Shown piece by piece: positions 57,137 through 64,000 of a stretch of 64,000 bases of DNA. The stretch comes from an uncultured Verrucomicrobiae bacterium (GTDB lineage Bacteria; Verrucomicrobiota; Verrucomicrobiia; Chthoniobacterales; Xiphinematobacteraceae): contig CAVPNI010000002.1 of the NCBI GenBank assembly GCA_963706715.1, positions 1 to 64,000 of the forward strand, in the 5' to 3' direction. The position numbers and the translations under genes were made by a program. The notes under the pieces were generated by a model that saw nothing but the letters and a program-made list of their open reading frames with translations, was not told where the DNA came from and did no database searches. Numbering within the stretch: the first letter of the stretch is position 1; each line of letters begins with the position of its first letter.

Positions 57137-58264
57137 CTAACTAGACAAGGCTTCCTGCACTTTGGCGATCAAAAGATCCTCGGTAATGGCTTGAAGGACG
57201 CCACAGCGGGTTCTATCGGGCATTTCATCCGGACAGAAATTGGGCATAGAATCACTGGGCCAATAGCACGGTGATTTGGGGCATTTTTCAGAAAGAAAAA
57301 TCGGGAAATGTCTAGGATAGTACCCGATCCGGCATTGTGGATCATGGAGACCCCATAGCCCTATGCAAGGTACGCCAAAAACACCCGCTGCATGGACGAG
57401 CATGGAATCAGGTCCTACACAGATTTCAGCCCTTTTAATCAACGTCCATAAAATACGCCACTTTTGAAAAATTCGGAATTCAACATTGGGAACATCTAGC
57501 GGAGGCTCATAATAGGCCTGAGAAATACCAGGCCCATAAAGTCCTATCCAATGTAATTCTGGAAATGCTTTGGCTAACTCCAGGAGGAAATTTCTACTTT
57601 GTTCAGGCGCAAGGGACCTTGCATGCTGCGAGGCAGACAGTTGAAAAAATGCAAGCCGCTTACCCTTGTAAAGAGCATTGCCGATTGTTTTTTCCAGAGT
57701 AGTGAATTCCGGAGCCAATCGCTTTTCACTTGCAGGAATACTCTCCGGATCAATGCCCACCTTGGTAAGCATAATATTTAATGGATGACCCTGGTCCCGG
57801 TGCGCATACTGGTTAGTTAAATATTCAAAAAAAACATGTGCATGAAAGCCTTGCACCACGTTCCAATAAGCGGGTAACTGAATAATCGATTGTATCCACG
57901 GAAAGCCCAACCACAAGATTTTGTAGTGTTGAGCCGCCACCAAAATATGGACCTTGTAGCCGCGTTTGTCCAAGATGCGAGCCAAAGGCCACATCATAAT
58001 ATTGTCACCCATTCCACCAACAGCATTAAATAGTAATATGTGCTTTCCTTTTCCATCTGCTTCAGCATGTAGCTCCCGAAGAAGTGGCCAAGCCTCTGAA
58101 GTATTCTGCATCAATGAGACTATGGGACTTTTAACTAATTTATCAAACTGCTTATTGCTTAGAAGATATGGCTTATAAGCATCTAATACAACGGTGGGTG
58201 ACTCAAAAGATTCGCTTAGAACGTTTCCTCCATATAAATGCTCAGAAAAAGAAACAACTTTCAT
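57137..58264 (-). CDS. GT9 (heptosyltransferase-like) glycosyltransferase with C-terminal four-Cys motif
   Basis: GGMGDNIM, VGPDSMLVHAAG, GLWG motifs; CPKSPC..CP..C. Confidence 0.8.
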   Translation of the reverse strand: MKVVSFSEHLYGGNVLSESFESPTVVLDAYKPYLLSNKQFDKLVKSPIVSLMQNTSEAWPLLRELHAEADGKGKHILLFNAVGGMGDNIMMWPLARILDKRGYKVHILVAAQHYKILWLGFPWIQSIIQLPAYWNVVQGFHAHVFFEYLTNQYAHRDQGHPLNIMLTKVGIDPESIPASEKRLAPEFTTLEKTIGNALYKGKRLAFFQLSASQHARSLAPEQSRNFLLELAKAFPELHWIGLYGPGISQAYYEPPLDVPNVEFRIFQKWRILWTLIKRAEICVGPDSMLVHAAGVFGVPCIGLWGLHDPQCRIGYYPRHFPIFLSEKCPKSPCYWPSDSMPNFCPDEMPDRTRCGVLQAITEDLLIAKVQEALSS

Positions 58265-58272
58265 AATGTATG

Positions 58273-60015
58273 CTAATAAGCGGGAAGATTGTTAAGAAAA
58301 ATGTCCAAATTGGGCGCAGAGGAAGCAGCTCGAGCGACTTTTTGAAGCGGTTCCGGAATTTTTGATAGATTTTCTTCCGGAAAATATTCGACTGGCCAGG
58401 GGCGAAGAGAAAAAAACGGATTTGCCGCATCGTGCCAGAACCAAAGAAGAGAACTGATTGCGTCCTCGGTTTCTTGAGGACCGAGGCGTTCCAACGAAAG
58501 GAGACGAATTGCGGAGCCATCTACAGCGATGGTGTCCGTACGGATATTATTCAAAAACAAGGAACGTTCCCGGAACCAAGAAAGAAGACCCAACAGGCTG
58601 CGCGTTTGATCGAGCACTACATCGGACAGTTGAAATTTTCGCGCAAAGGCCCAATTTCCCTTTCCTAAGAATAAAACGATTTTCCATTCCTTATCGGTAG
58701 TCTCTTCTGAAATTAGACGAGGGATTTCGGGGATCTGTTCTCCAAATTTTCGCCAGCAGCCAGCTTCTCGACGGGTTGAACAAACGGCGGAGGTATTGTT
58801 GGTATCTACCGAAATATTAGCCACGCGAGCAGCAAATTCTGAAGTTAACAGAATTTTCTCTGAAAGATGGAAAGGGCTTGGAAAGTCATGAGTAACCACC
58901 CCTAAATATGGCTGTTTTAAAGATGGAGCCTGATGCCAGGCAAAATCTTTGACCAACACATCCCATGGTTCCGATGCATAGTGGAGAATATAACGAGATC
59001 TCCGGCGGGCAATGAGTAGAGTGGAGACATCCTCGCTAAGGGCATTGTGATCTTTAGGATAAAGAGGATGAATCTCAACGTTCATGTGGCGAAGTGCTTC
59101 CGCATGAGATTCAACTTGGTTTTCCGTAAGCAAAAGGATGAGAAATGGAAAAGCGGGCTCCAGATCGCTGATGGCCTCCATATAGTCAGAAGCCGATTCC
59201 TGAGCCCAAAATCTAAGTATCTCATAGTCTAGAAACAAGGCATCAAATACATTGCTATACCTAGCTATTAGTTCCGGGGAACGAAAATGCCCTGTTTCGA
59301 TCAGCAAGCGAAAGTGTGCCTGCCAGCAGGTCCACGCGTTTTTGAGACTCGAAAAGAGAACTGCCCGGTCCTTGTTTGGTTCAACAAGACCCACGCGGAG
59401 CATGAAAGATAACTTCATTCCCAAAAGCGCATTTTGACCACTGAAAAAGCAGAGTGAAGCAATGCGTTTCGGTGCAAGAAGTTCGCGTTCTATAATACGG
59501 GCAGCTGCCATTTGCCAGTCAGTCAAAATCGACTCAAGGAAAAGGGCATCATGATGAGCATCCGTAGTATCTTCGCTGATCGAAGGAGAGGCGCAGGGGA
59601 TCTGCTGCCCAAACAGGTCCTGAGCATCCAATTTTGTTATGTCCTCAGCAGAAAAAATCCCACTGATGACGTACTGAAACCATTGAAGCGTGACACCGAC
59701 TTTTTTGTAAGCGATGTTTATCTTCTGTTCTCGATCCAATAGGCAACCGTTTTTCTCCAAAGAACGTAAGGTCCGTTCTTGCTCTTCGAGATGCTTACGA
59801 AAGGTTTTTTCTATCAAAGCAGCCTTTGCTTTAATCTGGTCAATCTCACCGGGGGAAGATGCCCGGGAGAGCATAACGTCAAACTGACGAAGAAATCCCT
59901 CCATATTTTCCCGTTTTCGCATCCAGTCCTGCCTTAAAATAACACTTTCCTGGCGGAAGTCTTTTTGTTTAACGATCATAGTGCTGTTCGATCGAAAATT
60001 TCGTTCCAGAAGCAA
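58273..60015 (-). CDS. Hypothetical protein: coiled coil + methyltransferase-like + kinase-like (WbdD-like, degenerate)
   Basis: Intact 580-aa ORF; kinase-fold spacing with catalytic motifs replaced. Confidence 0.5.
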   Translation of the reverse strand: MLLERNFRSNSTMIVKQKDFRQESVILRQDWMRKRENMEGFLRQFDVMLSRASSPGEIDQIKAKAALIEKTFRKHLEEQERTLRSLEKNGCLLDREQKINIAYKKVGVTLQWFQYVISGIFSAEDITKLDAQDLFGQQIPCASPSISEDTTDAHHDALFLESILTDWQMAAARIIERELLAPKRIASLCFFSGQNALLGMKLSFMLRVGLVEPNKDRAVLFSSLKNAWTCWQAHFRLLIETGHFRSPELIARYSNVFDALFLDYEILRFWAQESASDYMEAISDLEPAFPFLILLLTENQVESHAEALRHMNVEIHPLYPKDHNALSEDVSTLLIARRRSRYILHYASEPWDVLVKDFAWHQAPSLKQPYLGVVTHDFPSPFHLSEKILLTSEFAARVANISVDTNNTSAVCSTRREAGCWRKFGEQIPEIPRLISEETTDKEWKIVLFLGKGNWAFARKFQLSDVVLDQTRSLLGLLSWFRERSLFLNNIRTDTIAVDGSAIRLLSLERLGPQETEDAISSLLWFWHDAANPFFSLRPWPVEYFPEENLSKIPEPLQKVARAASSAPNLDIFLNNLPAY

Positions 60016-62999: not shown

Positions 63000-63604
63000 A
63001 CACTCATAGATTTCATGATAAGTTGCCCTTACTGAGTCAGAAAGGCAGGATTCTCAAACCTGTTGATGCCGGCGTTGTTTGTAGCGCCATAGAAATTTTG
63101 GAGGCTGCAAAAGCAGAAGAGCAAAAGAGACGCCAAGCAATGCAAGAGGAATGGCAGCGCCAGATTGAAGCCGGATTTCGATTGGGGACCGAAGAGGCCC
63201 AACGGAAAATGGCGATTCATTATTGGAGTGTAGTATCCAACACCGTTGGATACCTGGAAGCAATACAGGGACAAATAGCAGAAACCATAGTGCAAGCCGT
63301 TCGTACATTGATACAAGCTGCTCCGCCAGCTGAACAAGCACTCCAACTGGCAACAGCCGCTGTTGAGCGGCTCCGACAGCAAGCTTGGATAGTACTTTGC
63401 TTGCATCCGGACGACGTTGATTCCGTTAATAGCTTGTTAGAGAGGTGGAAAACGCAATTACCTCGCAATATGCGCGTGGAAACGCGTGCTTCAGAAGAAG
63501 TGGGGCGGGGAGATTGCGTCCTTGAATCCCCTATTGGGAGAATAGACGCTTCCTTGGAAACACAAATCAATATTCTAAAGGAACAGCTCAGAAAGACCTT
63601 ATGA
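62996..63604 (+). CDS. sctL: Type III secretion stator SctL (YscL/HrpE)
   Basis: A.EILEAA, GFRLG, LHPDD, GDCVLESPIGRIDASLETQ; ATGA coupling at both ends. Confidence 0.9.
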   Translation: MNTHRFHDKLPLLSQKGRILKPVDAGVVCSAIEILEAAKAEEQKRRQAMQEEWQRQIEAGFRLGTEEAQRKMAIHYWSVVSNTVGYLEAIQGQIAETIVQAVRTLIQAAPPAEQALQLATAAVERLRQQAWIVLCLHPDDVDSVNSLLERWKTQLPRNMRVETRASEEVGRGDCVLESPIGRIDASLETQINILKEQLRKTL

Positions 63605-64000
63605 GCTTTGCATCGGAAACGGCTAGTCGAGAAGACGACGAAAGAGAACTGGAGGGCAGAGTGACAGCGATGAGGGATATAGGAGAGGGCGGAGAAGTTT
63701 GCTTTGAGATCAATAAAGTTTACGAAAAAAAAACTCCGCTGTTATTTGCTAATGACTTCTATCCTGACCTGCTCGGTCCCCTTTCCGAAGCCGTGGAAGG
63801 TACGCGGACCCGGCAACTCCGCGGCCGGATTACTGAGGTGATCGGCATGTTGGTTAAGGCTGTCCTCTCGGGTGTAAAAGTTGGAGAACTCTGTGAACTG
63901 CGAAGAAGACAACAACCTGAGGCAACAATTTTAGCGGAAGTAGTTGGATTTACCAGCGACGAAGTACTTTTAATGCCATTGGGGGACCCCAGCGGCCTCT
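63601..64000 (+). CDS. sctN: Type III secretion ATPase SctN, N-terminal part (runs off the window)
   Basis: Manual translation RGRITEVIGMLVKA...VKVGELCEL...LAEVVGF...LLMPLG. Confidence 0.88.
   Translation, partial: MSFASETASREDDERELEGRVTAMRDIGEGGEVCFEINKVYEKKTPLLFANDFYPDLLGPLSEAVEGTRTRQLRGRITEVIGMLVKAVLSGVKVGELCELRRRQQPEATILAEVVGFTSDEVLLMPLGDPSGL

Follow-up and report, generated by a model that had tools for sequence, protein, structure and literature searches.

Why does an operon of glycan-enzyme homologues lie back to back with the genes of an injectisome? This question is raised by the first 64 kb of contig 2 (CAVPNI010000002.1) of assembly GCA_963706715.1, a genome of the Xiphinematobacteraceae (Verrucomicrobiota; Chthoniobacterales) that comprises 3.04 Mb in 4 contigs, is 100% complete and stems from a source described as a soil/freshwater Verrucomicrobium. 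In this stretch of 64,000 nucleotides, which we call the window, three minus-strand genes (the trio) are divergently oriented to a type III secretion system (T3SS) operon that runs across the end of the window. By homology, the trio encodes a degenerate relative of the glycosyltransferase (GT) KrkA, a degenerate relative of the kinase-methyltransferase WbdD, and a divergent GT9 member. We conclude that the trio is a lineage-specific accessory operon of the injectisome in a group of Chthoniobacterales. With regard to its function we favor, tentatively and at a little less than an even chance, that the three proteins form a cytoplasmic complex that would glycosylate T3SS-exported proteins, with the two pseudo-enzymes serving as adaptors.

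The trio extends on the minus strand from position 60839 to 57137, and its arrangement confirms the three-gene operon of overlapping or abutting reading frames that a preliminary description of this DNA had proposed. Gene 1 (P0003, P287; 59976..60839; 287 amino acids) is coupled to gene 2 (P0015, P580; 58273..59979) through an overlap of its TGA stop codon with the ATG start codon of gene 2, which reads ATGA. The open reading frame (ORF) of gene 2 spans 58273-60015; in the database, translation begins with the ATG at position 59979, which yields 568 amino acids. Gene 3 (P0001; 57137..58264; 375 amino acids) follows after a spacing of 8 nt. The region between the trio and the orf124-sctJ operon measures 122 bp according to the ORF coordinates (60840..60961) rather than the 160 bp or so given before, and a scan of these 122 bp for promoter and terminator consensus sequences revealed sites no more frequently than in shuffled sequence. 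On the plus strand, orf124 (60962..61336) encodes a small conserved protein that always precedes sctJ. Its designation as STAS-like found no support, since orf124 (seven family members) had no Pfam match at E < 0.2 and no match in the PDB at E < 1.8. The identities of the following genes, sctJ-sctK-sctL-sctN, were upheld by protein families: sctJ for the inner-membrane ring lipoprotein (61388..62254, plus strand; TIGR02544, 208.7 bits versus a cut-off of 161.95), sctK (62277..62999, plus strand; PF06578 YscK, E 1.2e-6, 28.6 bits versus a cut-off of 22), sctL for the stator (62906..63604, plus strand; PF02108, E 2.3e-9, and NF005392, E 1.6e-30, below its cut-off) and the 5' part of sctN (63601..64000, plus strand; PF02874, the remainder with PF00006 and T3SS_ATPase_C lying beyond the window).

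The divergent linkage of the trio to sct genes recurs in related genomes and metagenome-assembled genomes (MAGs). Within the genus, whose other genomes measure 2.5 Mb, 1.9 Mb and, in two cases, 0.9 Mb, the trio is divergent from orf124-sctJKLN in G001/L035, L050 (the same order up to the contig end) and L054, the proteins of the latter being 81-90% identical to those of the window. Downstream of the trio lie dnaG-rpoD in G001, and nusG and tuf in L054. Homologues of gene 1 and gene 2 are referred to in the following as P287-like and P580-like. In family f13 (G016), sctK-sctJ-o118 is divergent from a P287-like and a P580-like gene (23% identity, E 8e-28, for the latter), and this pair is followed directly and in the same direction by a GT34-like gene, two needle-subunit genes, sctI, chaperone genes and more. 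The f13 GT9 gene is located on the opposite strand of the same cluster, 9-14 kb from the pseudo-enzyme pair (G016, G131, G053), in a run that continues with a TPR_3-type chaperone gene and two small ORFs rich in S/T/N. A third family, f9, contributes L048 with a full trio, whose P287-like gene was recognized by hhalign with a probability of 96. All seven P580 loci recovered from metagenomes carry both an orf124 homologue and a P287-like gene, which adjoin each other divergently, as they also do in the f1 and g13 genomes; Sct genes are present in six of the seven, the seventh being a contig of 4.2 kb. The link between the trio and the T3SS is conserved over three families of Chthoniobacterales.

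This linkage was placed on a broader footing by surveying 201 Chthoniobacterales genomes. SctJ scored above its cut-off in 17 genomes, the GT9 profile matched at E 1e-20 or better in 14, of which 13 were strong matches, and the P287 profile matched at E 0.01 or better in seven. An injectisome is present in each of the 13 genomes with a strong GT9 match, in 12 as judged by SctJ over its cut-off and in the remaining one, G113 (the genome of L048), by sctC-F-D-I-V-W-U-T-S-R-Q on another contig that ends before sctN-J. The 14th match, in G072, which possesses neither SctJ nor FHIPEP, is partial (E 2.2e-22, positions 197-376) and probably represents a more distant GT9. Among 16 GT9 loci from species genomes, the flanks contain Sct core or needle genes in seven, and a TPR chaperone gene is positioned directly downstream in 12. 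A chance neighborhood, in which an ordinary lipopolysaccharide (LPS) or capsule gene set happens to lie beside a T3SS, might be read from the exopolysaccharide (EPS) genes and gmhA found within 5 kb in the window. This adjacency is not conserved, however, and the synteny survey contradicts such an explanation both through the recurrence of the sct linkage in three families and all seven metagenome loci and through the injectisomes of all 13 strong-match genomes, so that we regard it as extremely improbable.

The reading frames of the trio are intact and, as had been presumed, under selection. We calculated ratios of nonsynonymous to synonymous substitutions (dN/dS) by the Nei-Gojobori procedure against L050, at dS values of about 0.8-1.5 that are near saturation, and obtained 0.21 for gene 1, 0.14 for gene 2 and 0.075 for gene 3 (first 140 codons). 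The neighboring T3SS genes gave 0.21 (orf124), 0.165 (sctK), 0.11 (sctL) and 0.05 (sctJ). The trio is under purifying selection, and the GT9 matches from the profile search of 14 genomes contain no stop other than the terminal codon.

What, then, do the three genes encode? Genes 1 and 2 matched no family of Pfam or NCBIfam, even at E 10, and phmmer searches of the PDB with the single sequences of genes 1-3 yielded nothing meaningful. The family of gene 1 comprises six members among 5.8 billion proteins, plus remote ones in family f13. A profile built from ten sequences matched KrkA (9yfx) with E 2.9e-13, and the AlphaFold2 (AF2) model of gene 1 (mean predicted local distance difference test score, pLDDT, 81.4) was aligned by VIA-align to the same structure with Z 17.1 and a root-mean-square deviation (rmsd) of 4.5 over 270 of the 287 residues. 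The next fold matches were the related enzymes WbbB (GT99; Z 11.6) and KpsC (GT107; Z 8.8), and Foldseek gave E 1.4e-10 for the KrkA match. KrkA, the retaining 3-deoxy-D-manno-oct-2-ulosonic acid (Kdo) transferase of the E. coli K13 capsule, is the founding member with which family GT140 was defined (PMC12887879). Its activity requires the nucleophile Asp193 of the QXXXD motif, Glu102 and His227 of the HP motif, and is abolished in the D193A/N/C and H227A variants (PMC12887879).

These catalytic motifs are lost in gene 1. In the gap-free hidden Markov model (HMM) alignment, Q189 and D193 of KrkA correspond to P160 and H164, the latter invariant in the genus, and to T and Q in the f13 homologues, so that the QXXXD stretch reads P-P-H-L-H in this genus and T-T-L-F-Q in f13. 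The HP motif H227-P228 is replaced by N198-I199, with F196-P197 one residue off the register, and f13 reads A-T-R-Q. Glu102 is matched by E89, which is kept in 5/6 genus sequences and is D or N in f13. Gene 1 has no ribosyltransferase module. It retains the NGK stretch after the nucleophile loop and the C-terminal S-x-x-S-helix region; residues invariant over both families are T10, D12, R167, K172, S238, D240, K252, P253 and R270. Judged by these substitutions, gene 1 is predicted to be a pseudo-glycosyltransferase, a GT140 homologue devoid of the defining motifs.

Gene 2 belongs to a family of five members among 5.8 billion proteins, and a profile search of 1.84 billion representatives retrieved 12 proteins at E 0.001 or better. 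Four of ten such profile-found proteins that were scanned carry Pkinase, and three of these also possess methyltransferase domains (Methyltransf_11/25). When the dead gene 2 family (an alignment of 11 sequences with no live enzymes included) was compared by hhalign with these three proteins, a match with a probability of 99.0 and E 2.5e-18 was obtained over 373 columns that span both domains, corresponding to P0015 residues 157-564. A profile including the methyltransferase and Pkinase proteins reached WbdD (4azs) with E 3.5e-25, while with the profile of the dead family alone no match to WbdD in the PDB was obtained up to E 1; the relation between gene 2 and WbdD is therefore transitive and depends on these intermediates. 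The Atlas look-alike of gene 2 is a cluster of O-antigen chain-terminating methyltransferases/kinases (score 0.92).

WbdD is the chain-terminating kinase-methyltransferase of the E. coli O9a O-antigen, in which a long helical region is C-terminal. Gene 2 shares with it the domain order, methyltransferase-like followed by kinase-like, and a long helical region, which differs in being N-terminal (residues 1-150). The kinase catalytic loop YHNDLRxWN reads FLNNIRTDT in gene 2, with the Asp of HxD replaced by N478 and with N477 and R480 kept; the DxG stretch LVDLG reads LLSLE, with S495 in place of the Asp. Methyltransferase motif I (D/E-x-G-x-x-x-G) is degenerate in this genus (FFSGQNA) and reads E-I-G-S-K-Y-G in f13. 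We consequently classify gene 2 as a WbdD-type homologue that lacks the kinase motifs. The preliminary view of the two partners as glycan pseudo-enzymes agrees with these data, since both are homologues of glycan enzymes whose catalytic residues are gone.

Dead enzymes that retain invariant non-catalytic residues might also act as ligand sensors of nucleotide sugars or glycan ends that couple the status of the envelope to T3SS assembly or gating, with the GT9 in a minor or regulatory role. The NGK stretch and S238/D240/K252/P253 in gene 1, N477/R480/E503/E505 in gene 2, and a control region common to the divergent trio and sctJ operon would all suit such a function. Yet the Pfam and NCBIfam scans brought no domain for DNA binding or signalling to light, the HP motif that binds CMP is missing, and one Ser in the S-x-S-S-S stretch of KrkA, to which we would ascribe phosphate binding, has given way to an Asp. 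We consider a sensor function very unlikely.

Gene 3 is, by modelled fold and motifs, a member of GT9. Its match to Pfam PF01075 (24 bits, cut-off 22) covers residues 274-332 only, and its family is tiny (12 proteins including the query at E 0.001 or better among 5.8 billion). The AF2 model computed from 13 sequences (pLDDT 85.4) was matched by VIA-align to 3tov (Z 22.9), WaaF (1psw; 22.1), TibC (20.6) and WaaC (19.9), the next fold group following at 14, and Foldseek agreed with a GT9-type fold. The profile of gene 3 matched WaaF 1psw with E 1.6e-4. The catalytic domain begins at residue 74 and is preceded by an extra domain (residues 1-73) modelled as mixed helices and strands. D87 aligns with D13 of WaaF, and PDSMLVH with NDSGLMH; D87, D286, H291 and the four cysteines of a C-terminal insertion (C328, C333, C344, C354) are invariant in 13/13 family sequences. 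With these catalytic motifs intact, gene 3 probably encodes an active sugar transferase.

We compared gene 3 with the two groups of GT9 enzymes to which it might belong. It resembles WaaC, WaaF and WaaQ in that these enzymes provide its best fold and profile matches and in the GD and DS..H motifs; it differs from them in its N-terminal extra domain, in never being part of an LPS locus in relatives, and in scoring far below the curated cut-offs. On the heptosyltransferase II model (TIGR02195) it reached 13.9 bits versus a cut-off of 134.6, and on Pfam GT9 24 bits versus 74-137 for the six ordinary GT9 paralogues of this genome. None of the 13 family members exceeded the cut-off of the NCBIfam models for heptosyltransferases I/II/III and RfaQ (best E 1e-6 to 4.8e-9); their sub-threshold matches were to type II in nine, type I in eight and type III in five. 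Because its scores remain far under every curated cut-off, gene 3 does not cluster with the ordinary WaaC/WaaF/WaaQ core transferases; such clustering is what the preliminary description had considered damaging to a T3SS-linked function.

That description had also brought up the four-cysteine metal site of the autotransporter heptosyltransferases (BAHT) AAH and TibC, remarking that C-terminal Cys clusters are found in many ordinary GT9 enzymes too. In the BAHT, a four-Cys iron finger serves as a distinguishing insertion. Gene 3 and TibC have several features in common: the GT9 fold (4rap; Z 20.6, rmsd 3.2, 283 residues aligned), an extra domain ahead of the catalytic domain, a four-Cys insertion in the C-lobe before the last helix, a location beside a secretion apparatus, and a catalytic Asp 13 residues into the catalytic domain (D87 in gene 3, D110 in TibC; PMC4358343). 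The cysteines of TibC are Cys339/342/358/370, and their spacing C-x2-C-x15-C-x11-C departs from the C-x4-C-x10-C-x9-C of gene 3 (PMC4358343). Gene 3 has no sequence-level match to TibC, its fold match is no better than that to WaaF/WaaC, and its N-terminal domain, at which the BAHT possess a beta-barrel and a beta-hairpin thumb, is predicted to be mixed alpha/beta rather than a beta-barrel, the TibC alignment covering model residues 58-375 only. Neither Foldseek nor VIA-align separated a TibC-like from a WaaC/WaaF-like affiliation. A C-terminal Cys cluster is found at the same place in four of the six ordinary GT9 paralogues, and the site is therefore not diagnostic for AAH/TibC. BAHT genes adjoin those of their autotransporter substrates; no autotransporter domain was detected in Pfam scans of the ORFs flanking the GT9 gene in the window, G001, G016, G030, L037 and L048, the other loci being covered by tblastn only. 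Gene 3 hence falls outside every curated heptosyltransferase family, and its assignment to the BAHT is not supported by fold, sequence or cysteines.

The glycan ancestry of all three proteins brings up the EPS locus that adjoins the trio on its upstream side in the window (50769-56618). As judged by Pfam and NCBIfam families, it contains genes for a sugar-1-phosphate nucleotidyltransferase, a family-less 180-aa ORF, gmhA, a WcaF-like acetyltransferase, a GT2, a WecG/TagA-type transferase and a WcaJ-like priming phosphotransferase. The gmhA gene (52325-52912; TIGR00441, E 4e-55, 186.1 bits, just under the cut-off of 209.45) is 4.2 kb from the stop codon of gene 3, in line with the distance of about 4 kb noted earlier, but this proximity is not conserved: relatives carry dnaG-rpoD or nusG-tuf at the place where the window has gmhA and the EPS genes. 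A fragment of a repeated element with up to 16 genome copies, detected by blastn of the window against its own genome, lies at the junction (56671..57078). Since it sits between the GT9 gene and the EPS locus, the adjacency looks like the product of a local rearrangement mediated by an insertion sequence (IS). We rejected gmhA as part of the module, its linkage not being conserved in relatives. IS debris is indeed abundant in this genome, as had been stated: 17,943 of the 64,000 window bases (28%) occur in at least 3 genome copies. Repeat intervals are numerous in window positions 1-42800 (e.g., 18060-20571, 25005-28245, 30032-32942 and 37083-39465), and an IS630-like element has 22 blastn matches in the genome, 6 of which are 700 bases or longer.

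One might ask whether the trio serves to alter a glycan of the envelope, be it the LPS core, an O-chain or exopolysaccharide, in coordination with T3SS expression, so that the needle could, for example, extend past the surface layer. The acceptor of the GT9 would then be lipid-linked or LPS. Each of the three folds originates from the biosynthesis of LPS, O-antigen or capsule, the curated families nearest to the GT9 are LPS heptosyltransferases, the EPS locus lies next door, and in f13 a phosphodiesterase-TPR-sulfotransferase protein is encoded divergently to the GT9 gene in 12 of the 16 loci. Against this, the EPS adjacency is bounded by an IS fragment and seen only in this genome, and a tblastn search with the EPS proteins of the window found a match in 0/16 related GT9 loci, which also speaks against the possibility, raised in the preliminary description, that orthologues reside in LPS or capsule loci. 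Moreover, six ordinary GT9 genes are already present in the genome, genes for a flippase, a polymerase or an ABC transporter do not accompany the trio, and two catalytically degenerate enzymes out of three would be odd for a biosynthetic pathway. We judge envelope remodelling to be unlikely.

The neighborhoods of the trio in other families contain a number of further genes. In f13, a GT34-like (GMA12/MNN10, eukaryote-type) glycosyltransferase of about 205-216 residues is encoded between the P580-like and the needle genes (L013:328-978, G016); the genome under study has two tandem GT34-like copies on contig 1 (G000:C1:363564-364856) that are unlinked to its T3SS. The divergent neighbor of the f13 GT9 gene mentioned above is a type I phosphodiesterase-TPR-sulfotransferase protein of 900-1040 residues (L013:11133-13868), of which an unlinked homologue with 28% identity is present in this genome (G000:C1:66057-68021). 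Genes for an HAD phosphatase and a PfkB-family sugar kinase are positioned 3-4.6 kb downstream of the GT9 gene in the f13-type MAG L037 (L037:14129-15746) and could encode heptose-pathway enzymes. In L048 the trio is accompanied by genes for a polyketide synthase (PKS), an Asp/Arg hydroxylase, a PAP2 protein and a protein of 2536 residues whose C-terminal domain is a ubiquitin carboxyl-terminal hydrolase. After the gene for this last protein comes an ORF whose CesT-like match is weak (E 0.003, under the Pfam cut-off; L048:12483-20552), and the two together resemble a very large effector accompanied by its chaperone.

Other bacteria possess effectors with kinase folds as well as glycosyltransferase effectors, and some or all of the three proteins might themselves be T3SS substrates, i.e., effectors or host-acting enzymes built on repurposed folds. 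This would be in keeping with the eukaryote-like enzymes encoded around this T3SS in relatives, such as the GT34-like protein and, adjoining the trio in L048, the ubiquitin hydrolase with the CesT-like ORF. It would also suit the operon of the GT9 gene with a TPR_3-type chaperone gene (12 of 16 loci) and the fast evolution of the two partners, whose identity between families amounts to 23% for P580 and about 19% for P287, versus 57% for SctJ. However, gene 1 opens directly on the first Rossmann strand (E6-11 in the model) and has no room for a disordered N-terminal signal, the fixed position divergent to orf124-sctJ in three families is unlike that of mobile effector genes, translational coupling fits the subunits of one complex, and a GT9 donor such as ADP-heptose would presumably not be available in a eukaryotic host. 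An effector role of the trio thus appears improbable to us.

We return to the glycosylation of exported proteins by a cytoplasmic complex, the reading that we prefer. The three proteins would assemble in the bacterial cytoplasm, as translational coupling of their genes suggests, with the GT9 as the sole catalytic subunit and the dead enzymes as scaffold and as adaptors that bind substrate or glycan. The donor would be a nucleotide sugar of bacterial origin, ADP-heptose being the likeliest. Its synthesis is probably within the capacity of this genome, because genes resembling rfaE domain I and rfaE domain II, like gmhA just under their cut-offs, are present in addition to gmhA itself. As acceptor, we envisage at least one protein exported by the T3SS, be it the needle subunit, a tip/translocator protein or an effector, to which the sugar would be added before export. 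The arrangement in f13 favors this reading, because the pseudo-enzyme pair heads the needle operon there and the GT9 gene is accompanied by a translocator-type chaperone and S/T/N-rich ORFs. It is likewise favored by the f13 needle paralogues, with their near-identical cores and variable S/T/P-rich N-terminal extensions of about 40 residues.

Glycosylation tied to an adjoining export machine has precedents: the genes for the enzymes that glycosylate flagellins, autotransporters and serine-rich adhesins lie next to those of the machines that export these proteins. Maf-dependent glycosylation of flagellin precedes its export by the flagellar T3SS, and the GtfA/GtfB pair, which operates together with the accessory Sec system, consists of an active enzyme assisted by an inactive GT-B partner. 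These systems serve as a working analogy only, namely for the transfer of a sugar in the cytoplasm to the substrate of an adjoining export machine; no homology to the trio was shown. In the literature on type III secretion in Chthoniobacterales/Xiphinematobacter and on injectisome glycosylation, we found no comparable module.

Several observations weigh against a glycosylation of T3SS substrates. No acceptor or donor was identified, and no glycoprotein shown, in the sequence analysis. Both pseudo-enzymes descend from enzymes that act at polysaccharide ends, all three folds derive from polysaccharide enzymes, and the nearest curated families of the GT9 are the LPS heptosyltransferases I-III, albeit at sub-threshold scores; this ancestry and nearness would be equally consistent with a glycan and with a protein as acceptor. 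The likeness of gene 3 to TibC is no greater than that to WaaF or WaaC, and its Cys cluster is shared with ordinary paralogues. Two of the 16 GT9 loci, L037 and L048, have neither Sct genes nor a TPR chaperone gene in their flanks, and five of the 17 SctJ-positive genomes (G003, G004, G097, G105 and G112) are without the trio. Finally, orf124-sctJKLNOPQRST is preserved in both 0.9 Mb genomes of this genus, whereas the trio has disappeared precisely from between nusG and orf124. In one of them, G004, a single contig of 0.9 Mb, the order tuf, nusG, orf124, sctJKLNOPQRST (L052 = G004:C1:121000-137000) is that of L054 minus the trio. Since these relatives retain the sct operon, the T3SS is able to exist without the trio, and since the loss is clean, the trio is accessory to it; orf124 itself was kept. 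The retention of an injectisome in so small a genome is unusual in its own right.

The remainder of the injectisome is encoded in two loci of contig 2 (C2:61-76 kb and C2:104-116 kb), and the core genes sctJ, K, L, N, Q, R, S, T, U, V, W, C and D are all present. Past the window, the operon that starts with orf124 continues with sctQRSTU, and sctV, a TPR chaperone gene, a YscX-like gene, TyeA and SctW follow on the opposite strand. The second locus lies about 40 kb from the first, and the examined stretch (to C2:116000) ends inside sctC. It contains an 88-aa needle candidate, a TPR chaperone, a SctI-like ORF, SctD, a CesT-like chaperone and the start of SctC, together with three large family-less ORFs (508, 809 and 407 aa). 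Neither Pfam PF09392 nor an HMM of the f13 needle proteins detected a needle gene in this genome; the 88-aa ORF (C2:104080-104346) is a candidate by its position and C-terminal pattern only, and it carries three consecutive N-x-S/T triplets (NIS, NIT and NTS). In f13, needle-subunit genes often occur as tandem duplicates (L013:1102-1816 and 14 further ORFs from related loci). Their products consist of a nearly identical core of about 75 residues and a variable, S/T/P/N-rich N-terminal extension of about 40 residues.

In its boldest form, the glycosylation of exported proteins would make the trio the first glycosylation machine dedicated to an injectisome, in which the GT9 would place heptose or another sugar on the needle, tip or an effector in the cytoplasm, guided by two recycled pseudo-enzymes that now read or hold the substrate, the variable extensions of the duplicated needle proteins of the sister family f13, whose genes would be co-transcribed with the pseudo-enzyme pair, being the natural acceptor. 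We regard this full version as possible but rather doubtful. Irrespective of it, one live and two dead glycan enzymes in a conserved operon make the trio a concrete candidate for T3SS-linked glycosylation, and the clean loss of the trio in 0.9 Mb relatives that possess a T3SS offers a natural comparison. The trio further illustrates clearly that pseudo-enzymes can be maintained by selection (dN/dS 0.14-0.21), and it extends the newly defined family GT140 to a branch in the Verrucomicrobiota that is, by its motifs, catalytically dead. If the proposed function is true, secretion-coupled glycosylation would be new for injectisomes and would involve an unusual pair of pseudo-enzymes.

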